A stretch of DNA of 64,000 bases from a virus (IMGVR_UViG_3300033067_001743:1-64000), one strand, 5' to 3'. Shown: positions 7,629 to 46,923, numbered from the stretch's first letter. The notes: generated from the letters alone by a model not told the origin. Numbers and translations: made by a program.

Positions 7629-7964
7629 TCATTTTACAATACTTGCTTTATTAATGCGATCAAACATTTGTTCTATGGAGAATTGCTTCCCTTTTGAACT
7701 AAATATCTTTATATTTTCTAACACATCCACCCTTTCTGTTATTATTGCCTTTTCTAAAAATCTATAACCTTCTAATTTAGTAAATACAGATTCTAGATGA
7801 AAGGTTGTTTTAGTTTTATCTAAATACTTTTTTTGGTAGTGCTCTATGCCGATTTGATTCATCTCCCTGTCACAGTGTTCTTCTGTATTTCCCGGCCACA
7901 AGATGTAAAATTTTATAGTTTCTGGTTTCTTATCCATTGTTCTACTGTCATTGTTGGTTTCCAA
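7629..7964 (-). CDS. hypothetical protein
   Basis: 111-aa ORF. Confidence 0.55.
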   Translation of the reverse strand: METNNDSRTMDKKPETIKFYILWPGNTEEHCDREMNQIGIEHYQKKYLDKTKTTFHLESVFTKLEGYRFLEKAIITERVDVLENIKIFSSKGKQFSIEQMFDRINKASIVK

Positions 7965-8815
7965 TTCAAAATGGCTTCCGCCAAATGATTATGTGCAAGT
8001 GCTATTTTAGGCTCCAATCTTGCTTCAAGATACTGTCTTGGGTGATTTGCATCTATTAAATTGCAAACCTCATTTACAGAATAATTTATACCTGAACCTA
8101 TGTTGAATATCATCCCACCAATATCTTCTATTTTTGATGCTTTTATATTTGCTTCAACTACATCATCAACATAAGTAAAATCTCTTCTCTGGTTGCCATC
8201 TCCATAGATGATAAATGGCTGTTTATTTTTGTATAAATTCAAGAAGTTTGGTAGCATTTGTGGATATTGTCCTGAACTTGGTTGGTTGTCTCCATATACA
8301 TTAAAGTATCTCAAAGATATTGTATCAATGCCATAAATATCGCTATAGAATTGACATAGCATTTCCCCTTGAACCTTTGTAAAAGCATATGGAGATGTTG
8401 GTGATACACTATCGCATCCTTCATTAAATCCTTCAAATCCGGGGTTATTGTCTCCATACACTGAACTACTTGAAGAAAATATAAATCTATTTATCTTCCA
8501 ATATCTACATGCTTCAAGTAGATTTAATGTACCTGTTACATTTGTATCATGGTATTTAATTGGATCAAGGAATGAAGGTTGAACCCTTGCTTTGGCAGCC
8601 AAATGGAATATACACTCCACTCCATCAAATAAATGATGACCCGGATTTAACTTTGATATATCATGTTTATGAAATTCAAACTCTGATTCCCAATCAAAAT
8701 CAGGTGCTGAATTTGAATAGTCATCTATTCCAACTACTTCATAACCCTCTCTTAATAACCTTTTAATTAAATGTCGGGCTATAAATCCATTACAACCCGT
8801 AATTAATACTTTCAT
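7913..8815 (-). CDS. NAD-dependent NDP-sugar epimerase/dehydratase
   Basis: TGCNGFIA, HLAA, SSSSVYG, YAFTK (YxxxK), RYFNVYG, RDFTYVDD. Confidence 0.93.
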   Translation of the reverse strand: MKVLITGCNGFIARHLIKRLLREGYEVVGIDDYSNSAPDFDWESEFEFHKHDISKLNPGHHLFDGVECIFHLAAKARVQPSFLDPIKYHDTNVTGTLNLLEACRYWKINRFIFSSSSSVYGDNNPGFEGFNEGCDSVSPTSPYAFTKVQGEMLCQFYSDIYGIDTISLRYFNVYGDNQPSSGQYPQMLPNFLNLYKNKQPFIIYGDGNQRRDFTYVDDVVEANIKASKIEDIGGMIFNIGSGINYSVNEVCNLIDANHPRQYLEARLEPKIALAHNHLAEAILNWKPTMTVEQWIRNQKL

Positions 8816-9033
8816 ATTGATTCTTTGCTAACTTTTAATACTTCTCTTGAACTTGTTATCATTACTCTATTATCATTCATCACTGTTTTATATTTGTATT
8901 TTGGTATATCATAGTGTGGATGTCCTTTCCTTACTCCCTCAAACCAACATCTCTTTATACCAATCTCATTGCAGAAGTTGTGTAACTCTTCTATACTGTT
9001 TGCTACTAAATGTATCCTATCTGTGTAGATCAT
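8812..9033 (-). CDS. DUF4031-like protein
   Basis: HLVANSIEELHNF...IGIKRCWF...HPHYDI. Confidence 0.75.
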   Translation of the reverse strand: MIYTDRIHLVANSIEELHNFCNEIGIKRCWFEGVRKGHPHYDIPKYKYKTVMNDNRVMITSSREVLKVSKESI

Positions 9034-9314
9034 ACTAATTTATATCTTACAATATATCCACCCCTTGAAGAAAAGTCTCCTTCATTGTATGGTGGTATGT
9101 ATTCTATACTCATAAAATAAATTTCATTTTCTGGATGATTACTATTTAACTCTTTAAAAACCTTTTCAGCAAAATCATCATCCATAATTTCATCTTTTCC
9201 TGTAACTGATTGTAATTTTCTTGTCTTATATCCATCATCAGAAACAGGCTTTATTGTGTCAGGATAGTTTTTCACTAATTTATTAACTATTGACCTTTCT
9301 ACACTTACTATCAT
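9030..9314 (-). CDS. hypothetical protein
   Basis: 94-aa ORF with 4-nt overlaps to both neighbours. Confidence 0.55.
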   Translation of the reverse strand: MIVSVERSIVNKLVKNYPDTIKPVSDDGYKTRKLQSVTGKDEIMDDDFAEKVFKELNSNHPENEIYFMSIEYIPPYNEGDFSSRGGYIVRYKLV

Positions 9315-10582
9315 ATTTTTATTAAATTATTTTCATAATGGGTTAATGCTTTTATATTCAACTTTAGATTCCCTAATTCAAATTCTCCTATGTCTCCACT
9401 ATCTGTTAGTATATCACTGAGATTGCAAATAACAGAATAATCATTTTGATCGAACCTTTGTCCATCTATTTCAACAACTACATCAGGAATGGTTCCTATA
9501 CTCTCCACGATTCGTTCAGTTAAACGATATTTGGTATTAGGCTGTTCTATGCTTATATACTCTGAGACTTGATCGTAGGGCAAATCTGTGACTATTTTAT
9601 CACACCAAATCTCAAGTGCTGGTAACAGTTGTGGTACACAATTCTTAACTACGATGCCAATATTGTATTTATGTGGAATGATTGGATGTAAATATTCATC
9701 ATGTCTAACCATTGATCCCCACTTTCTTATAAAATTTCTGGTTGATTTTAAATTTTGTGCTTCCCATTCAGAACTGTTAGTTCCTACTTGAGTAATGTTA
9801 GGATTAAACCGGCTTCCTCTACATGTTAAGTGATAAACAAATCCGTTCCAAGTCTGTATAAATTCACATCCATTTAATTTGAAACGATTGAATATATCAG
9901 AATCTTCCTTGCTTTGTGGTGCATACAATGGATCATGTCCACCAATGGCTTTAAACTCATCAACCCAAAACGCCCACGGCGCAAAAACTCCATTAGTTTT
10001 TGAGTTAGCACCAATGCTACCACTATCACGAGAAAATTGTTGTAGCAATTCCATCTCTTTGAAATTTTCTGGTTCAGTACCAAAATCTACAACTACTTTT
10101 TCTGGTCCTGATGGATGAAGTGGAGGTTCAATTCGAGTGAGACTGACAATTCTATTTTTAATTGGATAAAAATTTAAAACTAAATTTCCGTCTAACCTTC
10201 TAACTCTTGGATGAGTTTTTATAGATTTATCTATTTCTTTTTTCTTGATGTACATATAAGCCTCAATAGCATCTAATGCTCCCGGAACTAAATACATGTC
10301 ACTATGAAAGATCATTGCAATATCAGTATCAACTATTTCATTGATAATCCGATCATATATAATTGTATGGCCTAACCTTTTACCAGTTGTATTTTCTATT
10401 GATTTTACTAATGGATCGACCTTCTTAATTTCTTCAATCCATTCTTGAGTTCCATCTGTGCAATGATCTATTCCATAACAAATGTGAACCTCATGGTTTT
10501 CTTGATTTTTGCGAATAGAATCATAAGACCACTTCAAATACTTGAGGTTATCCCTTGTACTTACTACTAAACTAATTTTCAT
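9311..10582 (-). CDS. GT2-family glycosyltransferase
   Basis: KISLVVSTRDN, GIDHCTDGT, FHSDM, GGHDPLY...EDSD. Confidence 0.85.
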   Translation of the reverse strand: MKISLVVSTRDNLKYLKWSYDSIRKNQENHEVHICYGIDHCTDGTQEWIEEIKKVDPLVKSIENTTGKRLGHTIIYDRIINEIVDTDIAMIFHSDMYLVPGALDAIEAYMYIKKKEIDKSIKTHPRVRRLDGNLVLNFYPIKNRIVSLTRIEPPLHPSGPEKVVVDFGTEPENFKEMELLQQFSRDSGSIGANSKTNGVFAPWAFWVDEFKAIGGHDPLYAPQSKEDSDIFNRFKLNGCEFIQTWNGFVYHLTCRGSRFNPNITQVGTNSSEWEAQNLKSTRNFIRKWGSMVRHDEYLHPIIPHKYNIGIVVKNCVPQLLPALEIWCDKIVTDLPYDQVSEYISIEQPNTKYRLTERIVESIGTIPDVVVEIDGQRFDQNDYSVICNLSDILTDSGDIGEFELGNLKLNIKALTHYENNLIKI

Positions 10583-10746: not shown

Positions 10747-11703
10747 TCAAAAATATGAATTGAATTTATCTAAAAATACTTTTTCTGTAAAGTTGTCATC
10801 ATATGCCTTTTTTGCATAAGCGTAACAATAATTGTAAAAGATAGGATTTTCTTTTAGATGTTTTGCTGCTTTCCTTGCTGAGACCATATCTCCCTCCTTA
10901 AACGAAAGTTCGGGGAAACATAGTCTTTGTGTATCTAAATAATCCCACCCAATACAGGGAATGCCTAACCTTGCACAATTTAAGGAAAAGGTTCCGGCTG
11001 CATAAGTTCTCATTAAATGAACTGCATACTTTCTCTTTGATAGTTCTACTATCCACTGTTTCCATTCCATGTATGGTAGATATTCAATGCCTTCAATATT
11101 AGTTTCTTCTGCATGTTTCCTTCCCATAGATGGAGCATAAATTTGCTCATCAAACTCTTGAGCAATAAAGTAAGAATCTTGACCTGAATACCATTCTGTC
11201 CAATTTCCTCCAACCATACAACCCGACCTATTTTCTTTACTGGTTAATTGCATAATTGGAATAGCATCTTCTATCATAAGACTTGGCAAAATTGAAACCT
11301 GCTTATCTGGAAACAAACCTTTATAGTATAATTTATCTGCCTCATTATGACAAAAAATAATATCACAATCATTTAAAAAGTTTATGTATTGAAACTGATC
11401 AAATATTGTTCCATTTTGCCAGTAGGTTTGATTTGCCTCTTGCATCGTTGCCCATTTTCCACACCTATGTTTGTTCTTCTCATAGCAACTAAATGCTAAG
11501 TGTGGATTCTTTTTTGGAACTATTACAATTCCAAGATCAAAATTTCCCTGAAATTGGGAATTAATGTCTAAACAGCAATCCAATGATAATACTGTTGCAT
11601 TAAGTGCAACACTCCATGCAACATCAGTTCTCATATTGGGAAAATTCCTTGGATAATATGATCCAATAGTAGTTCCCATCTCACTAAAAAATGCTACTCT
11701 CAT
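10747..11703 (-). CDS. putative GT-B glycosyltransferase
   Basis: MRVAFFSE start, CDIIFCHN, AGTFSLNCARLGIPCIG C-terminal GT-B-like motif; cluster context. Confidence 0.6.
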   Translation of the reverse strand: MRVAFFSEMGTTIGSYYPRNFPNMRTDVAWSVALNATVLSLDCCLDINSQFQGNFDLGIVIVPKKNPHLAFSCYEKNKHRCGKWATMQEANQTYWQNGTIFDQFQYINFLNDCDIIFCHNEADKLYYKGLFPDKQVSILPSLMIEDAIPIMQLTSKENRSGCMVGGNWTEWYSGQDSYFIAQEFDEQIYAPSMGRKHAEETNIEGIEYLPYMEWKQWIVELSKRKYAVHLMRTYAAGTFSLNCARLGIPCIGWDYLDTQRLCFPELSFKEGDMVSARKAAKHLKENPIFYNYCYAYAKKAYDDNFTEKVFLDKFNSYF

Positions 11704-12117: not shown

Positions 12118-12687
12118 CTATACAATTTCGTCAACAACTCCCCATGCTAATGCTTCTTGTGGGGTCATATACCAATCTAACTTTTTAGCATTAACTTCTT
12201 TTAGTTTTGTTCTTGTTAGTTTGGTGTTCTGTATAATTATGTTTTCTAATAATTTTTGTAGTCTTTTTGTTTCTGCAACCCGTTCCTTCATATCTTCTAA
12301 AGTTCCTCCCATCCAACTACTAACCTGATGATATAGTGGAGTTGAATACTTATGTGCAAACCTTTTATGACCACATATTAACAACATAAATCCACAACTC
12401 ATTGCAGCACCAGTTGCATATGTATATATCGGTGTTTTTGAATTCTCCATAACAGACAATAGCCCAAATATTTGATAAGCAGTTCCTCCATAAGAATCTA
12501 TGTGTATCTTTATTGGCTTTGCAATGTATTCTAAATCATAAACATCATATAATTTTGATAGAAATTCATCACTTTCATTTATACTTATGATGTCTTCTGT
12601 AATTTTTTTAATGGAATCTTGATCAACCTGTTCATAAAAATATAAATTTCTTAATTTTGGCAATGGTAAATTTATCAGTTCAGACAT
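12118..12687 (-). CDS. clpP: ClpP-like serine protease
   Basis: RNLYFYEQVD, IDSYGG, GAAMSCG (catalytic Ser), LYHQ, DWYMTPQEALAWGVVDEI. Confidence 0.9.
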   Translation of the reverse strand: MSELINLPLPKLRNLYFYEQVDQDSIKKITEDIISINESDEFLSKLYDVYDLEYIAKPIKIHIDSYGGTAYQIFGLLSVMENSKTPIYTYATGAAMSCGFMLLICGHKRFAHKYSTPLYHQVSSWMGGTLEDMKERVAETKRLQKLLENIIIQNTKLTRTKLKEVNAKKLDWYMTPQEALAWGVVDEIV

Positions 12688-13352
12688 TCTTTAAGTAGTT
12701 TTGGTGTTATTTCGTAGTTCTCAAATAGATGTGTTAGGCTCAATTGTAACTGTTCAAAATTATGTTGATTCCAGACATTATGATTATGTGTTCCGGCTAT
12801 GTGTGATTGAAACATGATCATATCTCCATTGTGTATACTTATGTTTTCTTGTTGTATTCCATCATGCCCAAAGAATGTTTTACAATCCCAGTTCATTCCT
12901 CTGTTATGTTCGTAGTGAATTGCAGCATACTCAAATGTTCGCTCAATTAATCTTTTATTTTCTTCATTTATTAACCAACCGGGTGATCTCCAACCATCAG
13001 GATAATTATCAATTGTATTAAGCCATTCCCCTAACATACTATTTATGCTTGAAATTGAATCAAAGTTTGGTTCAAACATTTCGCATTCTCCATATTGTTT
13101 TGGATTATCACACATATGAAAATGACCATGTGCTGCCAGTTCAAGCCATTCAATACTATTTAACTCCCTTATCCATTCCCTATGTTCAGTAAGTGGGTAT
13201 TCTTTATGATAATTGCTTGGTATAAAAAGTGTAAAACGACAACCAAACTGTTCATTTAATTGTCGCATCCAAACTTCTGTTTGCTCTCCAAGAATTCTAT
13301 AACCTTTCTTTGGACAAACGTCATCAATTGCTATATTAAGTTTTAGATTCAT
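12675..13352 (-). CDS. polysaccharide deacetylase-like (NodB/DUF2334)
   Basis: IDDV, AAHGHFH, GWRSPGW motifs. Confidence 0.75.
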   Translation of the reverse strand: MNLKLNIAIDDVCPKKGYRILGEQTEVWMRQLNEQFGCRFTLFIPSNYHKEYPLTEHREWIRELNSIEWLELAAHGHFHMCDNPKQYGECEMFEPNFDSISSINSMLGEWLNTIDNYPDGWRSPGWLINEENKRLIERTFEYAAIHYEHNRGMNWDCKTFFGHDGIQQENISIHNGDMIMFQSHIAGTHNHNVWNQHNFEQLQLSLTHLFENYEITPKLLKECLN

Positions 13353-15181: not shown

Positions 15182-15387
15182 TATTCATTCTCCAAATTTT
15201 TACTTGGGCATATACATTCATAATGTCCCTTTGTTATATACTTATATTGTCTACATGGACATAGTTTATTTTGAATATTCTCATTTTTTTGATATTCTTT
15301 ATTTGTTTGTTTATAAACCTCTATAATCCACAAACCTAACATAAACAATACCGTTAATATGATTATAACCTTTTTAAACTTTATCAT
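15178..15387 (-). CDS. small membrane protein with Cys motif
   Basis: N-terminal TM, CPC...CIC. Confidence 0.5.
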   Translation of the reverse strand: MIKFKKVIIILTVLFMLGLWIIEVYKQTNKEYQKNENIQNKLCPCRQYKYITKGHYECICPSKNLENEY

Positions 15388-16439
15388 TATAAGGCTTTTA
15401 TTTGATTCATTACTTCTTGCAACTTTACAGATTCCTTTTGAAGTCTCAAGGTTCCAAGGTTATATTTACTTGAATCTTCCAATATCTTCCACCATTTTCC
15501 TTTCCGGTCATCACAGAATCCATTTGGATTATTCTCATTCAAGATATAGTTCCGTTTGTTTGGATGTCTTCTGTTGTGGACTCTAAGTATATTGTTAAAG
15601 TTGTACTGAACGAATTCATTGCCCATAATTATCTTTGCCATCTGTAAAAAAGATTCGTCTTCTCCACAGTGGATTAATGATCTTGGAATGTTAACACCAG
15701 AGCGTATTAATTCACTGGAAATGATGAGACATGAACCATCTGCTTTTGGTTCTCTCATTTCAAGTATATCAACCTTTTCAAGGGAAATGTTGTTTATTTC
15801 ATTCATCCTTTCAATTGTCATGTAAGCCTTTTCACTGGCTTCATTGTTCAATATCCAGTTATCATTATCTTGGTATTGGACCTTTCTATACATTGGGTGT
15901 GTTACTGCTTCCCATGTACTATCCCAGTTCTTCCTGCCTGCGAAACTTGCTACAAACTTTGGGGTATCTTCGGATACCATTTGATGTAGTGACTCTATTA
16001 AGGTTAAGGTTTGTTTAGGCCATAAACTATCAGTTTCTCCCCAACAAACATAATCAACCCTATCACACCATTGATCACAAAGTTCCCGGCGATATGCTGC
16101 AATATTATAAAAAGGTTCAATTACTTTTGAATCTAGTGATAATCCAGCACCAGCATCTTCTATAGGATAAAAGTACTTTAAATATTCTAATTTAATTAAT
16201 TGAATTTTCCTTGATTTATCATAATTTTTCTTCCATTTAAGGTTGAACCTTTCTGCTAATTTATCAAGGTTAATCTTTTCTAAATGTTCTTGAAAATTCA
16301 AGCAGAAGTGAAATGTCACATTCTCAGGATTTTCTACATCACCTAACATTTGAATACAGGATTCTACATACTCTCCTAACATCTCAAGTTCATAAAATTG
16401 AACTAAGGCTCCTATTACATATTTATTTTTTAATTTCAT
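15387..16439 (-). CDS. putative GT-A glycosyltransferase
   Basis: YVCWGETDSL (DxD-like), DGSCLIIS, GEDESF; cluster context. Confidence 0.55.
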   Translation of the reverse strand: MKLKNKYVIGALVQFYELEMLGEYVESCIQMLGDVENPENVTFHFCLNFQEHLEKINLDKLAERFNLKWKKNYDKSRKIQLIKLEYLKYFYPIEDAGAGLSLDSKVIEPFYNIAAYRRELCDQWCDRVDYVCWGETDSLWPKQTLTLIESLHQMVSEDTPKFVASFAGRKNWDSTWEAVTHPMYRKVQYQDNDNWILNNEASEKAYMTIERMNEINNISLEKVDILEMREPKADGSCLIISSELIRSGVNIPRSLIHCGEDESFLQMAKIIMGNEFVQYNFNNILRVHNRRHPNKRNYILNENNPNGFCDDRKGKWWKILEDSSKYNLGTLRLQKESVKLQEVMNQIKAL

Positions 16440-21918: not shown

Positions 21919-22521
21919 TTATCTTACCAATTTACAAATGTAACCTTCATTATCTTGAAGTATTCTAACTGGTGTACCGCCAAATGAATATCCTTTTTCA
22001 TGTCCAATCATAGCAACTATTTCAAGTTTTTTAATTTTAATTAATTGCAATACTGCAAATCGGACATCTGGTATCAAACCTATATCATCAAATACAAAGT
22101 AAACATCACCATCAGCCAATTTAAAATTTAAGGCTCTCATTACATCTGACATCACTGCATCAAATGTGTGTACTGCATCAATGAAAAATACTGATACAGG
22201 TTTATGTTTACAAGTTGTTTCTATTGGACTTTGATATAAGTCAAGACCAATATACTGAATATTGTCAAGGTCAGCATTTAACCTTTTTGCTTCATCAAAG
22301 TGGTTGGGTAGATTAAATGTATAAACCTCATTGAATAAATGGGCTAAAATTCTCGTTGTTTGCCCTTTATGTGTCCCAAACTCGACACAATTCTTTTTTT
22401 CAAACCCTTGAAAGAAGTCCCAAAGGTTTCTTTTGAAGAGGAAGGAAGTAGTTGACATATTAACTGTCTTATCTTCCTTAACCTCTTTAAGTAGTTGGTC
22501 AATAGTTTTATCTAATTTCAC
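21919..22521 (-). CDS. Methyltransf_24-type SAM methyltransferase
   Basis: VEFGTHKGQT, FFIDAVH, FVFDD. Confidence 0.8.
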   Translation of the reverse strand: MKLDKTIDQLLKEVKEDKTVNMSTTSFLFKRNLWDFFQGFEKKNCVEFGTHKGQTTRILAHLFNEVYTFNLPNHFDEAKRLNADLDNIQYIGLDLYQSPIETTCKHKPVSVFFIDAVHTFDAVMSDVMRALNFKLADGDVYFVFDDIGLIPDVRFAVLQLIKIKKLEIVAMIGHEKGYSFGGTPVRILQDNEGYICKLVR

Positions 22522-34190: not shown

Positions 34191-34808
34191 TTACTTTCGC
34201 TTTATTACCATTAATCCGGGTGAACTTTTTACATGTTCTACAATTTCAAAATCACCTTCTCTCAGTAACTCTAATATTGGAGGCATTAATTGTTTTCTGA
34301 ATAAAGTCGTATCATGGAATATTATGTATTTAGATACTAAACTTTTATGTTTGTTTAATTGTAATTTTAAATGTCCCATTGTATGTTTGGAGTCAATAAA
34401 TAGTAGGTCTGTTGGTTCAATATCTATTTTAGAATCATCACCTTCTATTGCTACAAAATCAATTCCCTCATTCATAGCCAATTTCAATGCCCAAAGCAAC
34501 CATAAATTTTTCCTATTAAATTCTGGGATACTCTTACTTGCTCTCTTATGTAAATCAATGTCAATTGATACCAATTTCTTTGGTTTTGCTGCTAAAAATG
34601 CATATGTTGAATTTACTTGATTTATGCCAAACTCTGTAATGTGCTCACATTCCTCTGAATACTTTCTTAAAATCTCCATGTAAGGTGCAATCCACATTAT
34701 TGAATCTCTACCTTTCTGATCTTCTGGATTTGATGCTATAAAACTATAATTTTCCTCTATAGTAGGAAATAATCCATATTTTTCTCTAAACCTTTCATTG
34801 TCTATCAC
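34191..34808 (-). CDS. class I SAM methyltransferase-like
   Basis: ITEFG...STYAFL, DLLFIDSKH, IIFHDT. Confidence 0.75.
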   Translation of the reverse strand: MIDNERFREKYGLFPTIEENYSFIASNPEDQKGRDSIMWIAPYMEILRKYSEECEHITEFGINQVNSTYAFLAAKPKKLVSIDIDLHKRASKSIPEFNRKNLWLLWALKLAMNEGIDFVAIEGDDSKIDIEPTDLLFIDSKHTMGHLKLQLNKHKSLVSKYIIFHDTTLFRKQLMPPILELLREGDFEIVEHVKSSPGLMVIKRK

Positions 34809-36821: not shown

Positions 36822-36824
36822 TGT

Positions 36825-37913
36825 TTATTCTGTTTCAAAACCTTCTAATTTAGTTAACCATTCATATGTGTGCATTACCAGTTTTTCTGGGTTATACAAT
36901 CTACTATATGCTTCTTTCATATCTTCACCTTGCCAAGGTTTATATTTGCCCCAATTATCTAAAACATCTACTACTTTATCAACTAATGTTTTAAACTCCC
37001 AATCACATTTTAAATATGAACCTGTTCTACTTTTGTATGGATTTGGTGTGCTTTCAATGTGATACATACTTGGCTTAATCAATACTGCACCAAATTGTGC
37101 TGCTTCTATATCTCGTGGAGCCATTTCACCATAACCAAAGGGAGCAATGACAATTTTAGCCCTACTCATCAAATTATAGTAATATTCAATTGGAACCTTT
37201 TTTCCATCTTCCAATTTCGCTACTGTTATGTTTTTTGGGAGTTTATCTAATTCTTCGATACACTTCTTTCGATGAAGGTCATAATCAAGGTTTGTTAAAC
37301 AACCAAATTCCCAGTTTACTTTAGCCGGATATGAAAACATTGCAAATACATCAATATCCTTATGTAATTTTGATGTATCATACCATACCGGATTAATAGT
37401 TGATAACCAATTACAACCAGATAATTGAACCTTTTTTAGTGTGTCTATTTCATCTTCTCTAATTGCATAGCCAAAACTCTCTGTATTTTTTTGATTTAGG
37501 TTTAATAGTGGTTCTCCAAGTCCCCAATAACTCCTTCCCATCTTCCAAGGCTTTAGGTAATCGTTCCTGTCAGCATATAAACTGTTCTTGAAAAGTAATT
37601 TTGCTTTACTATTCTTGAATACATCAAAACTTCCTATAAGACTTGCACTATCCTGTCCGTCAAATAACACATAATCACCTTCTATTTCAGTTTCTAAATA
37701 ATGAAGACCTCTTGATATAACATTACCATATGTGTATGTTTCAAAGTTCTTTTTATCATTGAAACTTGCTTGGGCTACCCATGTTAAATCACACTTTCCC
37801 TCAGTTACAAATTGTACTCCAATATCTTCAAATAAATTCTTAGCCATTAAATATGGCCGAAATGTTGTTTCATTGCGATGTTTAAACAGTTCTGCTAACT
37901 TTACTTTTATCAT
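36825..37913 (-). CDS. GT-B glycosyltransferase (CgeB/exostosin-like C-terminus)
   Basis: YYNLMSRAKIVIAPFGYGEMAPRDIEAAQFGAVLIKP. Confidence 0.7.
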   Translation of the reverse strand: MIKVKLAELFKHRNETTFRPYLMAKNLFEDIGVQFVTEGKCDLTWVAQASFNDKKNFETYTYGNVISRGLHYLETEIEGDYVLFDGQDSASLIGSFDVFKNSKAKLLFKNSLYADRNDYLKPWKMGRSYWGLGEPLLNLNQKNTESFGYAIREDEIDTLKKVQLSGCNWLSTINPVWYDTSKLHKDIDVFAMFSYPAKVNWEFGCLTNLDYDLHRKKCIEELDKLPKNITVAKLEDGKKVPIEYYYNLMSRAKIVIAPFGYGEMAPRDIEAAQFGAVLIKPSMYHIESTPNPYKSRTGSYLKCDWEFKTLVDKVVDVLDNWGKYKPWQGEDMKEAYSRLYNPEKLVMHTYEWLTKLEGFETE

Positions 37914-38641
37914 GGTTTAATTTTATCGTACATCTCATTTTGTCTAACTTGTCGATCAATATTTTTAATGTGGAACAAAGCATATCCAAAGTGATCTACA
38001 CCATCTTCATCTTTTGAAAATAGAGGTGCTATTATTGGAGACTTGTGTTCTTTTGTTAGAACCTCATGTACTTTATTTTTCCAATATATTTCGCCATTAT
38101 TCTTAAATAATCTTACTTGATAATCTGGGTAATTAATAATCTCAAGATTTCTACTTTCAACCCCTGCTAATTCCAATACATTATTTGTAGATGAATCATT
38201 TTTATGAATTCTTTTCTTTTTTACATACCAACCCCATTTAGTTATCCACTCTTGAGTTAAACCTTTGACAATATTAACTCTAGGTATTGCCCATGCTTCT
38301 ATATCTGGATTTAAGTATGAATCTGTTAAAACATTTAATGTATCAAATAAAAACTCCGAAACTAACTCATCAGCATCAATTTGAAATACCCAAGGATTTT
38401 TTGCATATTTCAACATATTATTTTTGAAACTTGCAAAGTCTCCATTTAATGGATATTCAATGTAAGTAAAATAGTCTCTCTTCATTAAAGGACTTATTAC
38501 AGACACTACCTGTGTTGTAACATTGCCCTGATCTCCCTGAACTATAATTTCATCACCATCCTTCAAATACTTTGATATTTGTCCCAATAGTAATTTCAAT
38601 TCAATATGCTCATTACAAACTGGTATGCAATAACTAATCAT
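37910..38641 (-). CDS. GT2 glycosyltransferase
   Basis: ISYCIPVCNE, FASFKN, QIDADE, PDYQVRLF...VHE. Confidence 0.9.
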   Translation of the reverse strand: MISYCIPVCNEHIELKLLLGQISKYLKDGDEIIVQGDQGNVTTQVVSVISPLMKRDYFTYIEYPLNGDFASFKNNMLKYAKNPWVFQIDADELVSEFLFDTLNVLTDSYLNPDIEAWAIPRVNIVKGLTQEWITKWGWYVKKKRIHKNDSSTNNVLELAGVESRNLEIINYPDYQVRLFKNNGEIYWKNKVHEVLTKEHKSPIIAPLFSKDEDGVDHFGYALFHIKNIDRQVRQNEMYDKIKP

Positions 38642-38865
38642 GTTGTTTGTTTTGGTTCTATGTAATAAAATAAATTATCTAACGCATTCCCGGTTTCACC
38701 ATCAAATTCAAATTTCCCACACACTATAACTTTATATGGTTTGCCTGTATCAGGGTTGTATTTTGTTTTTATATCGGTTATTTTTATATCTGATAAAGTG
38801 CAAAATGATGAATCTCCATCATGGTAAACCATGTCCCCAATATTTAATTCATTTAAAGTTTTCAT
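38638..38865 (-). CDS. hypothetical protein
   Basis: 75-aa ORF. Confidence 0.5.
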   Translation of the reverse strand: MKTLNELNIGDMVYHDGDSSFCTLSDIKITDIKTKYNPDTGKPYKVIVCGKFEFDGETGNALDNLFYYIEPKQTT

Positions 38866-39350
38866 TACTCTTCATTTGATTGTGAAACTCTGCTGTAAAA
38901 ATCTAATGTCGCGTCTTCGAATTGAAATTCACCATAAATGTTTGTTGTACTTTCATCCAGAACCTTGAATTGTTTTCCAATTTGAACAGAAACTACATGA
39001 GGTTCAGGTAATACGCCTTCCTCAAGTAACTTAAATGATGATACTTTCCAAATTAATTCTGGTCCATCTACTGTTGAAGTTATATCCGGGTTAAGAACTA
39101 CATCAGGAGTCATCATTATTATTTTAACCCAAACATTCCCATTTTCATCTACAAATTTAGTCCTTTGAATTAGTTCAGGAGAAACAGATAAAAACTTTTC
39201 CACAATTTCTGATCCTTCTTTCCATGAATCGAAGGTTTGGTATCCAGACTCCATGCAAAGACGCATGTTCTGGTTTTTTGTACTATCCAATTCTACCATA
39301 ACACACATATTGCCTGTTATTGGTGATATTTCATCATAATTTAGTCTCAT
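38865..39350 (-). CDS. hypothetical protein
   Basis: 161 aa, SPITG..C...LCMESGY. Confidence 0.6.
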   Translation of the reverse strand: MRLNYDEISPITGNMCVMVELDSTKNQNMRLCMESGYQTFDSWKEGSEIVEKFLSVSPELIQRTKFVDENGNVWVKIIMMTPDVVLNPDITSTVDGPELIWKVSSFKLLEEGVLPEPHVVSVQIGKQFKVLDESTTNIYGEFQFEDATLDFYSRVSQSNEE

Positions 39351-40666
39351 TATTCTGCTTTCTTTAGTTGTGGTAATTTTAATACTCTTGGTGTTGTTGC
39401 TATTTCTTCAAAACAGCCATATCTATCCAAAATATCTTTTAGTTTTTCAGTCATTTTCTCAAAGGAAAAGTTATCTGATGTATATTTTGGATGTTTGCGG
39501 CTTCTAACTAAGAATTTTTCATAGTTCTCAAACATGTCATTCATAAGTTGAGCAGCATATGGGTAACTAACTTGGAACCATTCTGAATCCGTTATCCATT
39601 CATTTTGTGCCGAACGATCAATTTTAATCATTTTACCGGGAAGTAGTTCTGAAAAATCTGGGTTCAAGAAATCAACTGGTCCTGAGTAGTTTGGTGCTAT
39701 TACAGGTTTTCCAGTAGAAGTGAATTCAAGTAGTGGCAATCCAAATCCTTCTCCGTGTGTAAAAGATACCATTGCTGAAATTTTTGGATGATTATACAAT
39801 TCATTCATTTCTTGTTCAGTTAGGTCTCCATTCAAAACATAAACATTTGGGAATTTTCCATTAAACCCTTGCTCTCTAAACATGTCTTGAATCTGTCGAA
39901 CCTTATCAATGATTTGATCTCGCTCAGTTATAGAAAATCCTGCACCAGAAGATTTTAGAACCAAGGCTGGACGGTTCTTTTTATTTTTAAATGTATTGAA
40001 GAATGTGTGAACCAACATACCAACGTCTTTCCTATCATGTCCAAGTTGAGCATTTATCCAGTGACCAACAAATAAGTAAGAAAAGGGTTCTTCAATCATC
40101 TTATTCAACTGATCTGTCAAGTCTGACTTTACAATAGTTTTTTTATTGTATATTGTTGTATCTAATCCTTCAAATAAAACTTCAATTGGTTTATTTACTT
40201 GTAATGTTCCATTCGCATTTTTAGTTACTTTATCAATACTCAAGTGTTGCGTTTGCATTGCAACCTGTTTAGTAAACTCACTTGGTACTATACACATATC
40301 AACTCTATTCATTCCTTCAACCATATTAACAGGTAAAAGACTTGCTTCTGATAATGCACTGATTCCAAATGACTTTTTTCCTATTCTTTGAAATTCTGGT
40401 GGTATTGTTATGTGAATACTCACATCAGGTTCACTATCAATCCTGTTATTAGGTAGCAATAAGTTCATCAATTCAACATCTTCTGGATTGCTGGGGCTTA
40501 ATGCTGTTAATGGGGTTCCCCCCCACTTTATTGATATAAGTTTAATATCATACTTTTCAACCACTTCTGGTATTGCTAACAAAGACTTTATGATCAGTCT
40601 TGAGTGTTGGCCATAACCTGACCTCGATTGAAATGGGGAAATAACTACAAGGCTCTTTTTGCTCAT
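39350..40666 (-). CDS. GT4 glycosyltransferase
   Basis: SRSGYG, RKD, GEGFGLPLLE...GKPVIA. Confidence 0.9.
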   Translation of the reverse strand: MSKKSLVVISPFQSRSGYGQHSRLIIKSLLAIPEVVEKYDIKLISIKWGGTPLTALSPSNPEDVELMNLLLPNNRIDSEPDVSIHITIPPEFQRIGKKSFGISALSEASLLPVNMVEGMNRVDMCIVPSEFTKQVAMQTQHLSIDKVTKNANGTLQVNKPIEVLFEGLDTTIYNKKTIVKSDLTDQLNKMIEEPFSYLFVGHWINAQLGHDRKDVGMLVHTFFNTFKNKKNRPALVLKSSGAGFSITERDQIIDKVRQIQDMFREQGFNGKFPNVYVLNGDLTEQEMNELYNHPKISAMVSFTHGEGFGLPLLEFTSTGKPVIAPNYSGPVDFLNPDFSELLPGKMIKIDRSAQNEWITDSEWFQVSYPYAAQLMNDMFENYEKFLVRSRKHPKYTSDNFSFEKMTEKLKDILDRYGCFEEIATTPRVLKLPQLKKAE

Positions 40667-41070: not shown

Positions 41071-41088
41071 ATTTTATAAATTTTCTAC

Positions 41089-41520
41089 TTATATATTTGT
41101 TAAGTCGTTTACAATTTTATTCACTCTATCCTCTACTGTTGGAATTGTCAACTTTTTTTCAAGTTCCTTAATCTCTCTTTTTAGTTTTGAGATTTTTTCT
41201 CTTGTTGCCTTTTCTTTTTGTCGTTTAAGTAGATCATCAATTAATTTTTCTGTTTCTATTAACATATAATTTTCAAACCCTAATCGTTCTTTCAACTCTT
41301 CATTAGTCAAATACTTTTGAAGTACTTTTAGATCAATTATATCATCAAATGCAGTTTCGTCTATTTTCTTATAAAGTGGATCACTATTTTTTAGTGATCC
41401 TGTATTTTTATATAGATAACTGTCTTCTACAAAAACATTAATTGGAGATACAAACTCTTTGTTAAACTCATCAGGATCATCTTCGTAGTATTTATAATAT
41501 TCTTCTGGATTTTTTACCAT
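41089..41520 (-). CDS. hypothetical protein
   Basis: 143-aa ORF with coiled coil. Confidence 0.55.
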   Translation of the reverse strand: MVKNPEEYYKYYEDDPDEFNKEFVSPINVFVEDSYLYKNTGSLKNSDPLYKKIDETAFDDIIDLKVLQKYLTNEELKERLGFENYMLIETEKLIDDLLKRQKEKATREKISKLKREIKELEKKLTIPTVEDRVNKIVNDLTNI

Positions 41521-43022
41521 AATGTAATTCCCATGTATCCCATATTAACTGTTGGAGATATTTTTATTATTTCATATCTTGGTCTTGGCTTGTATGCCTT
41601 AAATAAGGTTTCTAAGCCACTTTTAAAACCTTTGCACATATTTACACTGCCCATACCACTTTCTTCGCTTATAACCCATTCTCTGCCTTCCAGCCCACGT
41701 TTTTCCCTGTCTTCTTTGGTTAGTTTGTAAACTTCCATCAATCGTTCGGCTCCATCTTCTGCATCACAAACATCATCAAAAATATATGGAGTAGGAATTG
41801 AACCTTGTAACTGTCTTGCTCGTGGAAAAATTGGAAATGCCCAATTTCCATGATCTTTATATTTACCCCTTGAGTTAGTTGCGAATTCAGGACTAAATTC
41901 TATCCATTTACCATCTTCATCTGTGAACCTCATTTGGTCTTGAAGTCCACCTGTAACAGGTGCTATGATTGGAGTCCCGGTTAGTAAACTTTCATTTGCT
42001 GCTAATCCAAATCCTTCAGCAGATGACATAAACATTGTAACATCAGATAAATTATAAAACCAATTCAGTACACTTGTTGGTAATTGTTCCTGATTAAACA
42101 AAACTCTATAGTTTGGACATATTGCTTTCTTTACTGCTAAAAGGTCTGTACCATTTTCGTCTTGAATGTGGGTTTTCATTAGAAGGCAACATTTCTTTGC
42201 TTGTTCTTTTGGTAATGTATCACAGAATAATTTATAAGCCAGTATAACATCTCCCGGCTGTTTTCTACGAATATTCCTGCTGTTATAAAACACAACAAAA
42301 TCAATGTTATTTGGTTTTAGGAAATTATCTCTAAACTGAATATACTCTTTCCAATCAGGCGATTCTTCTGTTTCTTTGTAGAAATATTTTTCTGTTGAAC
42401 CATGAGGAAGGTACTTTAACAACACACCTTTAAGTTCTTGGCCATTTTCTAATTTATCTAAATCAGTATAATCTGTATTGTTGTACTTTAAACACTCAGA
42501 ATTTACAACCTTTGTACCTTTATTAATGGAAAATAACATATCACAAGATGAATATGCGCTTGAATTCCACAATGGAATAATGTGAGAATCCCATATGTTT
42601 ACATAAACTAATGGAATTTTATATTCCGATCTAAGTTCATGTTCCATGTAAAATAACCATCCCCAAAACCTTGGGTCTGTAATGAAAACAATTGCATCTG
42701 GTTTCTCATATGCAATAACCTCTCTCAAAACATCAGGAGTTCCGTAACCAGAGTGAGCATACAACATTACATTTGCATCTTCAACTCCTGTTTCGTTCCT
42801 AATATCTTGAGAAAGGTCTATTTTTTTTCCGTGTTCTGGGTGATTTAAGGCTGCGCCCAATTGTACCCAATCATATTTATCTACTGATCCTACTACTAAC
42901 TCTCTACTGATTGTACTAATTCCTGATTGAAATCTAATATCATCTCCAAGTAGTAATATTTTTTGTTTCTTCTGTGTATCCGAACTTAATTTTCGGAGTT
43001 TTGGAAGGTTAATTTGATTCAA
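41514..43022 (-). CDS. GT4 glycosyltransferase
   Basis: KILLLGDD...SG, RNIRRK, AEGFGLAANES..GTPIIA..TGG. Confidence 0.9.
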   Translation of the reverse strand: MNQINLPKLRKLSSDTQKKQKILLLGDDIRFQSGISTISRELVVGSVDKYDWVQLGAALNHPEHGKKIDLSQDIRNETGVEDANVMLYAHSGYGTPDVLREVIAYEKPDAIVFITDPRFWGWLFYMEHELRSEYKIPLVYVNIWDSHIIPLWNSSAYSSCDMLFSINKGTKVVNSECLKYNNTDYTDLDKLENGQELKGVLLKYLPHGSTEKYFYKETEESPDWKEYIQFRDNFLKPNNIDFVVFYNSRNIRRKQPGDVILAYKLFCDTLPKEQAKKCCLLMKTHIQDENGTDLLAVKKAICPNYRVLFNQEQLPTSVLNWFYNLSDVTMFMSSAEGFGLAANESLLTGTPIIAPVTGGLQDQMRFTDEDGKWIEFSPEFATNSRGKYKDHGNWAFPIFPRARQLQGSIPTPYIFDDVCDAEDGAERLMEVYKLTKEDREKRGLEGREWVISEESGMGSVNMCKGFKSGLETLFKAYKPRPRYEIIKISPTVNMGYMGITLW

Positions 43023-43379: not shown

Positions 43380-43784
43380 TTAAATGAATACCACTGGGAT
43401 ATTCTTTTTTTCTGCTTTTTTCCTAATGTTGTCATAAAGATTCCAGTCTAAATCAGATTGTGCTGAACCTATTACAAGTCTATCAGTTCGAATCAACATT
43501 TCCTGATAACGATGTGGAATGTGACTTGGATGTTTTCCTTTGCCAAAATACTCTTTTGGTAAAAAAGAATACATATTGTGACCTGTATAACTTGGATTAA
43601 ATTCCTTGTATGGTAGATCAAACTCAAGTGAAAACTTTTTTACATCATACTCAATTCCAGTTAGATTCCCACCACTAAAAATAGTGGCAGTATCACTAAA
43701 TGTTTTCTTCACTTGAAAAAGAAATTCCTTAACCTTAGTTGTGTAGTTGGTGTCAACACCTCCTATTATTCCAATTCTGTACAT
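43380..43784 (-). CDS. SLOG/YspA-like protein
   Basis: RIGIIGG, IFSGG..GIE, AEKKNIPVV. Confidence 0.55.
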   Translation of the reverse strand: MYRIGIIGGVDTNYTTKVKEFLFQVKKTFSDTATIFSGGNLTGIEYDVKKFSLEFDLPYKEFNPSYTGHNMYSFLPKEYFGKGKHPSHIPHRYQEMLIRTDRLVIGSAQSDLDWNLYDNIRKKAEKKNIPVVFI

Positions 43785-44734
43785 TATAGTGTTATTCTAT
43801 TTTCTATTGGACAAACTTCAAAATTATCTTTGAATTCACAAAAACGGCAATTAAATCCATTTCTACCTGTTATGGCTCTAAATGGATATAATTCGTTGTA
43901 AGAGCCATCTGGTAGAAAACAAGCATCTAAAAACTTCTGGAATTCCTTTTGTACTTGATTCCTTGATATTGAGCCTTGACTTGGTGAAAAGGTTTGGACT
44001 CTTTTTTGAGGGTATAATGAATCTTCATCCAATTTCCTCTTCAATATAATATAACTTCCTTCAATGTCTTCCACTGGAATGTCATACTGTTTGGCAAAGT
44101 ATATTTTATACAAAATAACTTGTGAAGTTTTAACCTTATCTTCCTTATCCCACTTCTTCCAACCCGCCTTTGAAGTTTTTAAATCTGGCATTGTTATCTT
44201 ACCATTATTTTTATCCTGAAATACAATATCAAGATACCCCATCAAATAAACATTAGGTTTTGTTTGATCTGGTACAACTAATAATGGTAATTCCGTTCCA
44301 ATTAAATTGGTATTCTTCCTGTCAAAGTAGGATGCTCTATTCTTTCTCAAATACTCCAATGTCAATAGTCCATCAGCAGCAAATTCCCCCAATTCTGACT
44401 GAGTAGAAAAATGCTTTCCCATCTTTTCCACTTCTATCATGTACTGTTCTCTTAACTCCGTAAACAAAAGACTTTTAAAGTCTAATGCATCTGCCTCTTT
44501 AACTGTACTTGTAAAAAGTACTTGTAACCAATGTTGAACAACATTATGAATTGCTGTTCCAAATACAGTGTGAATTGTGCCTTGTTTGTCTTTTAATCTG
44601 TCAATATGGCACAATTTCCAATAATGTTCGCACTTTTTAAACGATGAAAACTGAGAGTATGATACAAATTTAGCGTTCTCAGGTTTCTCTATATTCAAAT
44701 TGAATTTGGGGTCAATCGTGAATGATGCCTTCAT
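43784..44734 (-). CDS. PD-(D/E)xK (Cas4/RecB-like) exonuclease
   Basis: SYSQ...C, FGTAIH, GYLD, DLKTS, CRFC...C. Confidence 0.85.
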   Translation of the reverse strand: MKASFTIDPKFNLNIEKPENAKFVSYSQFSSFKKCEHYWKLCHIDRLKDKQGTIHTVFGTAIHNVVQHWLQVLFTSTVKEADALDFKSLLFTELREQYMIEVEKMGKHFSTQSELGEFAADGLLTLEYLRKNRASYFDRKNTNLIGTELPLLVVPDQTKPNVYLMGYLDIVFQDKNNGKITMPDLKTSKAGWKKWDKEDKVKTSQVILYKIYFAKQYDIPVEDIEGSYIILKRKLDEDSLYPQKRVQTFSPSQGSISRNQVQKEFQKFLDACFLPDGSYNELYPFRAITGRNGFNCRFCEFKDNFEVCPIENRITL

Positions 44735-45305: not shown

Positions 45306-45320
45306 AATTAATCTCCTTAT

Positions 45321-45632
45321 TTACAATATTAAACTACTTTTTGTTGTTGGTATTTCCTTCACTTCTGTCATATCAAACATTTCTTCAATGTCTTTCATAC
45401 CTTTAGGGAAGAATTGTTTTAATGGTGTGCCACAATCTGCACACTTAAAACATGGAATTGGTTGTACATAATCTTCTGGTGTTCCAGTTAATAGTTTAGA
45501 CCATTTCCTTAATATTACTGCCTCTTCAAAGAATACACCTTCACAGTTCTCACATTGAAATCCTGTGCTGTCTTCTAATTTTAGTGCAATTTGTTGTTGT
45601 ACTGGTGGTTTCATTGGTGCTTTATAACTCAT
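45321..45632 (-). CDS. Zn-ribbon protein
   Basis: CENC...CADCG. Confidence 0.65.
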   Translation of the reverse strand: MSYKAPMKPPVQQQIALKLEDSTGFQCENCEGVFFEEAVILRKWSKLLTGTPEDYVQPIPCFKCADCGTPLKQFFPKGMKDIEEMFDMTEVKEIPTTKSSLIL

Positions 45633-45868
45633 TAAACGTACCTCGCTGTTGCGTAAACCTGCTCCAATGCACTTAAAAAAGTGCGTTCGTCTATGTCTAC
45701 TCTATAATTAAATAATATTGGTGATCCTGACTCTCTTCTTATAAAACAGTCATTTTTTGGATTTAAGGGATTAATATAAACACATGTCCAAAATCTATTC
45801 TCATCATCTGATTTAACAATGCAATCAAAATCTTTTCCATGCACATTGTATTGTACTTTAAAATACAT
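45632..45868 (-). CDS. hypothetical protein
   Basis: 78-aa ORF. Confidence 0.5.
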   Translation of the reverse strand: MYFKVQYNVHGKDFDCIVKSDDENRFWTCVYINPLNPKNDCFIRRESGSPILFNYRVDIDERTFLSALEQVYATARYV

Positions 45869-46923
45869 TATTTCATACTATTTAAAATATTAACAAACCT
45901 TTTATTCCCATAATATAATTCTGTCAAAATATTTGCGTCTTCATATAATGACTGTTTCTCATCTTCATAATTTGACATAATACTTTTTACAAAATCTGAC
46001 ATTTGGAATCTATTCCTCAATAAGTATAAAAATTTATTATTTTTTGCTGATGACAAATCTCTAGGATAGTGATATTTACTTGGAAACATGTAATAATACA
46101 TGAGTTTATCTGGAACCATTGGGTATACTCCATTAATCATTGCCTCCCATAATACTACAGGATTTGCTTCTGCCTCTCTTCCGCAAAACACTGCCTTACT
46201 CTTTCTTAAAAGGTCTAAATACAACATCCGGTTGTTGTGATGTTCCTGAGCATATATAAATTTATACTCTGGCAATTCAACACTCAAACCTTGAAATACT
46301 TTAACTTGTAATTCACTGTTTATTTCATAAGGGAATAAAACTATATCATCCTTTTCCTTTTGAATGACTTTTTTCGTTACATATTCAAAAGGAAACCCTG
46401 TAATTTCCCAATTACCTTTTCTTTTAAGTCTTGGGTATTTGTTAAAATACAGGGTTGCCTGTTCTTCACATAAAAAACAATTCATGTCATAACTCTGAAA
46501 CAAAGAATGTTCAAATTCTCTACCCCAAGTCTTATACTTTCTCTTGAACCTTTGCCACATTGGACTTTCTTGGTTGAATAGAGCATTGCCCCAAAAACCA
46601 ATTAATTTAATGTCCATACCATACTCATCTTTGAAATAAGATAGTGGAACGGCTACAAAATTCCAAGCGTTAACAAATACAAATACATCCCCGTTCTTTA
46701 TTTCTCCACGGAGTATCATATCCATTATGGTTCGCAACTGAGTATTTTTGTAGTAAGTATCAGCCCACAAGAAAGAGTCATGTGATATATGACTTCCATC
46801 TATGATATTAACATCATAGTCATTAAAGTCATCATCCCTAAAACAATCCTTCCAGTAAGTTTCTATATGAACCTTCCTATTGTATTCAGTTACAACATGA
46901 ATTGTATTTTTTTGTTTAAGCAC
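45868..46923 (-). CDS. divergent GT-B glycosyltransferase
   Basis: GDVFVFVNAWN, TGFP, YLDLLRKSKAVF...VLWEAMINGVYPMVPD..Y. Confidence 0.6.
   Translation of the reverse strand: MLKQKNTIHVVTEYNRKVHIETYWKDCFRDDDFNDYDVNIIDGSHISHDSFLWADTYYKNTQLRTIMDMILRGEIKNGDVFVFVNAWNFVAVPLSYFKDEYGMDIKLIGFWGNALFNQESPMWQRFKRKYKTWGREFEHSLFQSYDMNCFLCEEQATLYFNKYPRLKRKGNWEITGFPFEYVTKKVIQKEKDDIVLFPYEINSELQVKVFQGLSVELPEYKFIYAQEHHNNRMLYLDLLRKSKAVFCGREAEANPVVLWEAMINGVYPMVPDKLMYYYMFPSKYHYPRDLSSAKNNKFLYLLRNRFQMSDFVKSIMSNYEDEKQSLYEDANILTELYYGNKRFVNILNSMK

Follow-up and report, generated by a model that had tools for sequence, protein, structure and literature searches.

To our knowledge, virus-encoded glycosylation is well documented only for the DNA of T-even-type phages, for a few mycobacteriophages and for giant viruses. 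The glycan-gene region considered here extends over positions 7913 to 46923 of IMGVR_UViG_3300033067_001743:1-64000 (the window, i.e., the initial 64 kb of a linear virus record in IMG/VR that is 122,495 bp long and has a CheckV completeness of ~67%). At its centre stands a core of two GT4-type glycosyltransferases (GTs) and one GT2 enzyme, conserved among aquatic phages, in which the two GT4 enzymes share a short terminal peptide and which may, as a tentative reading, start a glycan on the phage's own virion proteins. No description of this core or of its shared peptide was found in the literature searched; GTs of this kind are annotated without function in the record for Flavobacterium phage vB_FspM_immuto (immuto) and among the core orthogroups of moraphages (PMC12619734).

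The nearest cultured relative is immuto (160 kb), the DNA polymerase of which is 53% identical to that of the window phage. Regarding its gp181-gp169 cluster (NC_055915), orthologs of gp183 (a nuclease), gp181, gp180, gp179, gp178, gp173, gp170, and gp169 can be found in the window at 23-49% identity and in the same core order. However, the immuto cluster is contiguous over 11 kb and includes two WecE aminotransferases and an acetyltransferase, all missing from the window, whereas the window has extra GT-A, GT8-like and methyltransferase (MTase) genes and is interrupted by cargo amounting to 26 kb. In addition, G is modified to fdPreQ1 through DpdA in immuto, while the window record is without DpdA.

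Among systems acting on viral proteins, soluble phage GTs and MTases of mycobacteriophages are proposed (Freeman et al. 2023, as summarised in PMC12619734) to decorate capsid and tail proteins in the cytoplasm. The window set has no detectable sequence relation to these enzymes, is much larger, has a different core with terminal peptides, belongs to a phage of a Gram-negative host and encodes a putative glycosylation. In the capsid glycosylation of chloroviruses and giant viruses, virus-encoded cytosolic GTs work independently of the host secretory machinery, and chlorovirus B736L (PDB 3oy2) is the best match of both core GT4s. B736L nevertheless belongs to a eukaryotic virus and is only ~18% identical, and the first core GT4 differs from it further by an extra, beta-rich insertion and by its N-terminal peptide.

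Phage DNA hypermodification (T4 alpha- and beta-GT; 5mYOX- and ThyS-linked GTs, Pyle 2023; 5hoC arabinosylation, PMC13326640) resembles the window in its multi-GT clusters among DNA-metabolism genes and in its use of both GT-B and GT-A folds, and the contact of T4 alpha-GT with the clamp is a precedent for docking. It differs in that the window is without base hydroxymethylase or hydroxylase, C5-methyltransferase or 5mYOX, in that no Pfam match to the T4 GTs was obtained, in the acidity of the window proteins and in the unglycosylated DNA of the relative. The view that phage DNA glycosylation needs only one to three GTs, from which the initial annotation argued, is outdated (Pyle 2023 preprint; PMC13326640; PMC9023294). 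Moraphages, which are likened here by description, are large aquatic phages with predicted Bacteroidota hosts and four putative GT orthogroups in their core genome (PMC12619734), although their genomes exceed 200 kb and encode PolB.

A Conserved Core Operon

The genes from 43022 down to 33188 abut or overlap and thus constitute a ~10-kb translationally coupled operon, in which the core is joined by genes for a GT-B-like transferase, a methyltransferase-like protein and an epimerase. To count conservation, all proteins of the window were compared by tblastn with 80 related viral loci, out of 270 matching viral stretches. The operon and its conserved neighbours read as follows, the two core GT4 enzymes being named GT-B1 and GT-B2:

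45321..45632, minus strand: small Zn-ribbon-like protein, conserved neighbour of the core (homologs in 59-67 of 80 loci and immuto gp193; weak Zn_ribbon or LIM-type Pfam match among small open reading frames)
43784..44734, minus strand: PD-(D/E)XK nuclease, upstream neighbour of the GT core (Pfam PDDEXK_1 3e-16; 79 of 80 loci; 41% identical to immuto gp183)
41514..43022, minus strand: core GT-B1, GT4-type retaining, with N-terminal LPKLRK peptide (Pfam, EX7E, AF2/Foldseek; 80 of 80 loci)
39350..40666, minus strand: core GT-B2, GT4-type, with C-terminal LPQLKK peptide (Pfam, EX7E; 75 of 80 loci)
38865..39350, minus strand: conserved 161-aa protein between GT-B2 and GT2 (homolog of immuto gp179; 13 loci; no Pfam match)
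37910..38641, minus strand: core GT2, GT-A fold (weak Pfam GT2; DAD motif; 61 of 80 loci; 35% identical to immuto gp178)
36825..37913, minus strand: transferase resembling a GT-B C-terminal domain, Glyco_trans_1_2/GT90-like (family alignment A3)
34191..34808, minus strand: putative sugar O-MTase, weak (RMNT_CmcI 1e-3, under cut-off)
33188..34189, minus strand: short-chain dehydrogenase/reductase (SDR) acting as nucleoside-diphosphate (NDP)-sugar epimerase/dehydratase, last gene of the tight operon (Epimerase 3e-39; GalE/RmlB-like in NCBIfam, under equivalog cut-offs)

Both GT-B1 and GT-B2 match Pfam Glycos_transf_1 at threshold, and the EX7E motif of the C-terminal domain is invariant in their family alignments (E336/E344 in A2 for GT-B1 and E306/E314 in A1 for GT-B2), which were built from 28 and 36 related viral loci, respectively. 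The AlphaFold2 (AF2) model of GT-B1, with a mean predicted local distance difference test score (pLDDT) of 86, displays the two-Rossmann GT-B fold of GT4-type retaining enzymes; its top Foldseek match is B736L of chlorovirus NY-2A (3oy2) at 1e-14, followed by MshA, PimB', GlgM, and OtsA. The family profiles of both enzymes likewise find 3oy2 as their best PDB match, and that of GT-B2, for which the fold assignment comes only from such profile-to-PDB matches, finds WbaZ as well. Regarding the third core enzyme, the D89-A-D91 motif is invariant in alignment A4, as in GT-A enzymes of the DXD type. The predicted isoelectric points of the GTs range from 5.4 to 7.1 (5.7 for GT-B1 and 6.5 for GT-B2). 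A GtfA/GtfB-like pair, i.e., one catalytic and one chaperone subunit, was considered for the two GT4s and dropped, since both keep the EX7E motif.

The N-terminal (acceptor) domain of GT-B1 is highly conserved. In 200 genomes sampled from the class of a Flavobacteriales metagenome-assembled genome (MAG), no cellular counterpart of it was found, the matches being generic ones to the C-terminal domain (best E=7e-14). Fourteen matches in GTDB are to contigs of discordantly labelled MAGs, which look like mis-binned viral contigs.

The PD-(D/E)XK nuclease can be found in 79 of the 80 loci, GT-B1 in all 80, GT-B2 in 75, and GT2 in 61, and identity within the core stays at 42-52% among phages from the sea and from fresh water, which presumably infect many hosts. 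The core order is repeated in immuto (gp183-gp178) and in Microcystis phage Mel-JY01, while Rhodothermus phage RM378 keeps it for the nuclease-like gene and the two GT-Bs, there among exonuclease, ribonucleotide reductase (RNR), Erf, and helicase genes of a replication module. A tblastn search with GT-B1 in 50,697 phage records matched only immuto, Mel-JY01, RM378, and a single uncultured phage of 484 kb. So far, the module is known with Bacteroidota- and Rhodothermus-type hosts. In the clustered neighbourhoods of the 80 loci, the usual upstream order is PolB, an AAA clamp loader (62), a Zn-finger protein (67), Phage_clamp_A (74), PD-(D/E)XK (79), GT-B1, and GT-B2. Downstream of the core, the relatives have variable sugar genes (Glyco_trans_1_2, epimerases, a HAD-nucleotidyltransferase fusion).

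In the window, the homologs of immuto gp173, gp170, and gp169 lie at 7.9-11.7 kb, 26 kb away from the core, which indicates that the island has been split and expanded by mixed cargo relative to immuto. The region had been described as a single assembly line of ~39 kb. At least seven unrelated genes lie inside this span, i.e., those for ClpP, ThyX, a MazZ-like hydrolase, an HNH endonuclease, a papain-type peptidase, an AAA ATPase, and the PD-(D/E)XK nuclease, and the tight operon at 33188-43022 is the real unit. Synteny, which had been named as a check, holds for the order of the core in immuto, Mel-JY01, and the 80 loci. The architecture is better described as the conserved ~10-kb operon, a further sub-cluster at 7.9-16.4 kb that is likewise conserved, and additions specific to the lineage, amid unrelated cargo.

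The three-enzyme core with its shared terminal peptide is present in marine and freshwater viral contigs, at least 270 stretches in all, and its acceptor domain is specific to phages, so that the target of this glycosylation would be a widespread, unstudied trait of abundant aquatic phages. The question is open to direct tests in a cultured member, immuto, which grows on Flavobacterium sp. LMO8.

As a side observation on the operon, a 159-aa open reading frame (ORF) within it (36065-36544) shows a D...D-V-K-C-K-E pattern that recalls the PD-(D/E)XK nuclease core, with no significant Pfam match.

The Shared Terminal Peptide

At its C-terminus, GT-B2 carries one to three tandem copies of a hydrophobic-x-L-P-K-L-K-K peptide, and the same peptide is found at the N-terminus of GT-B1 in a marine clade that includes the window phage. 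The strict pattern is present in 59 of 68 GT-B2 orthologs, and in 66 of 68 when variants in the last two positions are allowed. Across all fetched loci, it occurs in 73 of 2,826 ORFs of at least 60 aa; all 73 belong to the two GT-B families, always at the terminus in question, against none of the other 2,753. Three degenerate copies of LPxLKK type can be found at the C-terminus of immuto gp180. The peptide is thus a private short linear motif common to two adjacent enzymes.

When the presence of the motif was correlated with that of gene families, no partner emerged, only clade structure. Binding of LPKLKK to a phage clamp of gp45 type was considered and is weakened as a candidate, the peptide being retained in a record in which neither clamp nor clamp loader is detected.

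Additional Glyco-Enzymes and Interleaved Genes

Outside the operon, the following glyco-enzymes or candidates are distributed over the region:

45868..46923, minus strand: GT4-like GT-B candidate (ESM-Atlas features, EX7E in family alignment)
31200..31946, minus strand: Methyltransf_24 or rhamnosyl-O-MTase-like methyltransferase of RMNT_CmcI type (PF13578 2e-13, PF04989 2e-4)
28944..29879, minus strand: GT-A-like candidate (ESM-Atlas features and structure)
26847..27638, minus strand: GT8-like transferase (PF01501 4e-5, 23.9 bits vs cut-off 24.3)
25503..26543, minus strand: FAD/NAD(P)-binding oxidoreductase between two GT8-like genes (only the N-terminal Rossmann part is matched)
24181..24933, minus strand: GT8-like paralog of 26847 (phmmer 2e-24 to it; no Pfam match of its own)
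21919..22521, minus strand: Methyltransf_24-like protein, weak (25.5 bits vs cut-off 26.3)
15387..16439, minus strand: divergent GT-A glycosyltransferase, of a family without Pfam model (AF2 and Foldseek)
12675..13352, minus strand: DUF2334, deacetylase-like (PF10096 1e-6)
10747..11703, minus strand: abundant phage family, possibly GT-B-like (3732 family matches; distant homolog of immuto gp173)
9311..10582, minus strand: GT2-like transferase (weak Pfam; ortholog with PF00535; 40% identical to immuto gp169)
7913..8815, minus strand: SDR NDP-sugar epimerase/dehydratase, GalE-like (Epimerase 2e-59; 32% identical to immuto gp170)

The initial annotation had counted about 11 GTs. Five of these are well supported (41514, 39350, 37910, 15387, 9311) and five moderately so (36825, 26847, 24181, 28944, 45868), while 10747 is weak. 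The product of 15387 (AF2 pLDDT 96) matches exclusively GT-A structures, namely COLGALT1, Mnn9, PcManGT, the GT domain of LH3, mimivirus R699, and TarS/TarP; it has no Pfam, PHROG or PDB sequence match, and E135-x-D137 and E260-D261 are invariant in its family of more than 278 homologs, one of which is fused to Methyltransf_24. According to this model, it represents a novel GT-A family. As for 9311, its own Pfam match is under threshold, and PF00535 is carried by the ortholog in a close relative (L086). In the family of 36825 (A3), seven of ten members match Glyco_trans_1_2, one matches GT90 at 8e-6, others match RXYLT1_C, and POGLUT2 is found in the PDB at E=0.008.

The remaining candidates are more distant. 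For 28944, ESM-Atlas features reach 0.95 to GT2-bearing clusters and structural comparison gives TM-scores of 0.57-0.58 to GT2 clusters, with no Pfam, PHROG or PDB sequence match. For 45868, the features reach 0.97-0.98 to GT4 clusters and E252/E260 (EX7E) is invariant in alignment A8; it has no Pfam match, and hhalign of its family to A1 is not significant. The product of 10747 shares 23% of its residues with immuto gp173 and, as a profile, matches BshA only at E=0.02, while both Glu of the GT4 motif are absent and hhalign to the GT4 and GT-B-like alignments is not significant. Since hhalign is not significant for the families of 10747 and 45868, their GT status is read from motifs, from Atlas features or from an annotated but distant homolog. 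For GT-like ORFs without a Pfam match, neither PHROGs nor PDB searches with the single sequence yielded anything useful. The families of 10747 and 15387, both without Pfam model, co-occur at 47-86% identity on the same large marine and freshwater contigs.

Regarding the accessory enzymes first listed for the region, both SDR epimerases are borne out by their Pfam matches. Among the four methyltransferases proposed, 31200 is solid and 21919 and 34191 fall under threshold, while a fourth was not found. The deacetylase, taken for NodB-like, belongs to DUF2334; it matches a GlcNAc-PG deacetylase model weakly and is syntenic in relatives. In the DAO-like oxidoreductase 25503, residues 2-72 alone match DAO, NAD_binding_8 and similar families, i.e., an N-terminal dinucleotide-binding fold, and nothing is matched beyond it; a role like that of UDP-galactopyranose mutase is conceivable. 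For the DUF6165- and DUF4254-like proteins, also proposed, none of the scanned ORFs gave a match at E<=0.01.

A Peptidase_C1 cysteine protease of the papain family (22518-23480) is paired with the Methyltransf_24-like gene at 21919-22521, and the pair is kept in the relatives L086 and L087. Homing endonucleases of different classes occupy equivalent places of the island, HNH/NUMOD4 in the window (19982-20500, 47833-48597) and GIY-YIG and LAGLIDADG in L086 (809-1489, 4847-5578), which marks the island as a recombination-prone region.

Candidate Acceptors

Cytoplasmic glycosylation of the phage's own virion proteins is the reading that we favour, tentatively. It builds on observed features, i.e., the folds and motifs of the enzymes, their solubility, the lack of export or known base-hydroxylating genes, and the conservation of the core; we infer the rest, namely a single product for all enzymes, the order of the steps and the acceptor. 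The conserved core, two retaining GT4s and a GT2, would start a glycan on one conserved acceptor, and lineage-specific extension might then involve the GT-A enzyme 15387, the GT8-like 24181 and 26847, the GT-A-like 28944, the GT2 9311, and the GT4-like 45868. The MTases 31200, 34191, and 21919 may O-methylate the glycan, and host NDP-sugars remodelled by the two phage epimerases could serve as donors. The acceptor would consist of Ser/Thr-rich surface regions of virion proteins, which would receive the glycan in the cytoplasm, either ahead of assembly or in its course, in the manner of mycobacteriophages and chloroviruses. Such a target would extend the glycosylation of phage particles to Gram-negative, environmental hosts, with a bearing on adsorption, grazing, aggregation, and carbon flux.

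A hydropathy scan found no transmembrane (TM) segment in any GT, and no polytopic protein of the size of Wzx, Wzy or WecA in the 122-kb record. Pfam scans of the window proteins gave no match for an initiating phosphoglycosyl transferase, flippase, polymerase, exporter or GtrA/B. The absence of TM anchors and of Wzx, Wzy, exporter, and initiating transferase, first noted by eye, is thereby upheld for the 122-kb record. The GT4, GT2, and GT8 enzymes of lipopolysaccharide (LPS)/O-antigen loci are peripheral and need no TM segment, and since those on the cytoplasmic face also lack anchors, their absence here is weak evidence. A cytoplasmic pathway building a glycan on virion proteins had been proposed from the outset; soluble enzymes without export genes agree with its first half, while its acceptor is not established by them.

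Virion proteins as target are further favoured by the findings that speak against DNA and a host lipid-linked glycan as acceptors (see below), by chlorovirus B736L being the nearest solved structure by both profile and fold, and by the presence of enzymes of sugar O-MTase type together with the GT-A-MTase fusion among the 15387 homologs. The island also combines a constant core with a variable downstream part, as is typical of surface glycans. Among the structural genes elsewhere in the record are four paralogous tail-tube-like proteins of ~130-185 aa (genome 80504-83374, 118322-118723) and two paralogous Ser/Thr-rich fibre-like proteins with TGS-containing repeats (genome 89942-91738, 121013-122368). 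SGS/TGS-type tripeptides number 103 genome-wide vs 47 expected, and are concentrated in the two fibre-like paralogs and in the N-terminal part of the sheath, which is exposed; a Ser/Thr-rich stretch is also present in the capsid insertion region.

Several points weigh against the virion as target. The enrichment of S/T-G-S is weak evidence, since fibres are often Ser/Gly-rich anyway. We know of no acceptor for B736L itself, and Foldseek equally lists GT4s acting on small molecules and lipids for 41514, while DNA GTs turn up further down among the BFVD matches. Sequence comparison detected no homology to mycobacteriophage GTs, the tblastn of GT-B1 against the 50,697 phage records having returned no actinophage. 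In most relatives, the clamp loader and PD-(D/E)XK nuclease directly adjoin the core on one side and the rest of the island does so on the other, and the RM378 copy sits in the replication module. Absences in a record that is ~67% complete are provisional. Finally, a putative late motif, ATATTTAT, has 22 copies on the coding strand of the whole record, 12 of which lie within 120 nt upstream of a start, mostly before structural genes. In the window, ATATTTAT precedes only 337-2211, 2585-3163, 31200-31946, and 47833-48597, so that all glycan genes except MTase 31200 are without it. The glyco-genes appear to be of early type; a scan for sigma-70 promoters remained at background level.

The position of the core beside the clamp loader and nuclease in most loci, and of the RM378 pair among replication genes, suggests instead a glycosylation linked to DNA or the replisome, in which LPKL(K/R)K would tether the core GT4s to a component of the replication fork or to the DNA, phage DNA or a protein bound to it would be modified as a measure against restriction, and elaboration of the glycan would fall to the variable GTs. 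A terminal, tandem, Lys-rich peptide confined to two GT families is what docking peptides usually look like. As precedents, co-purification of T4 alpha-GT with the gp45 clamp is described (PMC13216743), and complex DNA glycans are known, e.g., in YerA41 (PMC9023294). Nevertheless, we regard this alternative as unlikely. The initial annotation had recognised no hydroxymethylase or TET/JBP, and this extends to the rest of the ~67%-complete 122-kb record, from which PF00303 (ThyA-type hydroxymethylase/hydroxylase), PF12851 (TET/JBP), and 7-deazaguanine-type TGT/DpdA are absent. ThyA-like (PF00303), TGT, and PurZ genes are also absent from two 100%-complete relatives with the core (238 kb, 209 kb), so that no enzyme for a hydroxyl-bearing base was found in the record or in either of them. 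By liquid chromatography with ultraviolet and mass-spectrometric detection, immuto DNA is reported to contain canonical dA, dC, and dT, with fdPreQ1 replacing dG, and no glycosylated nucleoside (bioRxiv 10.1101/2023.04.13.536721). There is no Pfam match at E<=0.01 to the T4 alpha-GT and beta-GT families, enzymes that known DNA GT-Bs do resemble, T4 GTs are absent from the top 50 Foldseek matches, and the acidic to near-neutral GTs are unlike the DNA GT-Bs, for which a basic groove is described. Moreover, the peptide is kept in the window phage and in immuto though no phage clamp or clamp loader is detected in the window record.

Remodelling of a host lipid-linked glycan, either LPS/O-antigen or the precursor of the Bacteroidota general O-glycan, at the cytoplasmic face is improbable to a similar degree. 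Initiating transferase, flippase, and ligase would come from the host, and the outcome would be an altered cell surface, leading for example to superinfection exclusion or keeping progeny off debris. GT4, GT2, and GT8 enzymes with sugar O-MTases are the standard LPS/O-antigen toolkit, basic terminal peptides could serve as membrane tethers, and DUF2334 is weakly like a lipid-linked GlcNAc deacetylase; the hosts of Bacteroidota and Rhodothermus type and the early-type appearance of the genes would fit as well. However, no initiating transferase, flippase, polymerase or polytopic membrane protein is encoded, and the acceptor domain of GT-B1 has no cellular counterpart in the 200 sampled genomes, where recent capture from host glycan loci would predict one. 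In addition, host surface glycans vary, whereas the core stays well conserved across presumably many hosts, and the strict conservation of L-P-x-L suggests recognition of a protein over generic membrane binding.

The interleaving of unrelated genes raises a further, rather doubtful alternative, in which the region would hold accessory genes for several glyco-enzymes that have nothing to do with each other, some of them with small-molecule substrates (solutes, nucleotides, molecules of signalling or defence), and a glycan built by 11 GTs would be an artefact of summing. The ~26 kb of mixed cargo between GTs that are contiguous within 11 kb in immuto, the action of the GT4 structural neighbours MshA, BshA, OtsA, and SPS on small molecules, and the homing endonucleases, which mark the region as plastic, are consistent with it. 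Translational coupling across 33188-43022, the synteny of both sub-clusters in distant relatives, and the epimerases and sugar MTases that accompany GTs in many loci argue for a common pathway. Lastly, a core that is tethered to the replisome and glycosylates DNA, or a target bound to it, with no base precursor of the known hydroxymethyl or hydroxy kinds would represent a new chemistry of phage genome protection and has, in our estimate, a very slim chance of being correct.

Genome Context

The record has a GC content of ~32%. Nearly all coding sequence lies on the minus strand (35,521 aa vs 2,420 aa in probably spurious plus-strand ORFs), and since this co-orientation spans the whole genome, the shared strand of the glyco-genes, correctly pointed out before, carries no information. 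The glyco-region is flanked by genes for DNA polymerase A, RNR, a DnaB-type helicase, an exonuclease, a UvsX-like recombinase, and lysins. Close uncultured relatives of the phage include a Logan contig of 110 kb and a TARA scaffold of 223,753 bp, each of which shows synteny over the 7.9-23.5 kb part. The best explanation is a large, T4-related, aquatic phage, of which the window would be the early and auxiliary half; the host is probably a member of the Flavobacteriia (Flavobacteria). The designation as jumbo phage is unproven for a record of 122.5 kb that is ~67% complete.

Outside the window, a 374-aa homolog of PurA/PurZ-like adenylosuccinate synthetase is encoded at genome 93980-95104 (L001:1195-2319), and a MazZ-like dATP/dGTP diphosphohydrolase with an extra C-terminal domain can be found within it at 20497-21306. 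The two genes may belong to a 2-aminoadenine (Z) pathway or to purine salvage. As a pair they hinted at PurZ, yet the GDEGKGK loop is of PurA type and the top PDB matches are bacterial PurA.

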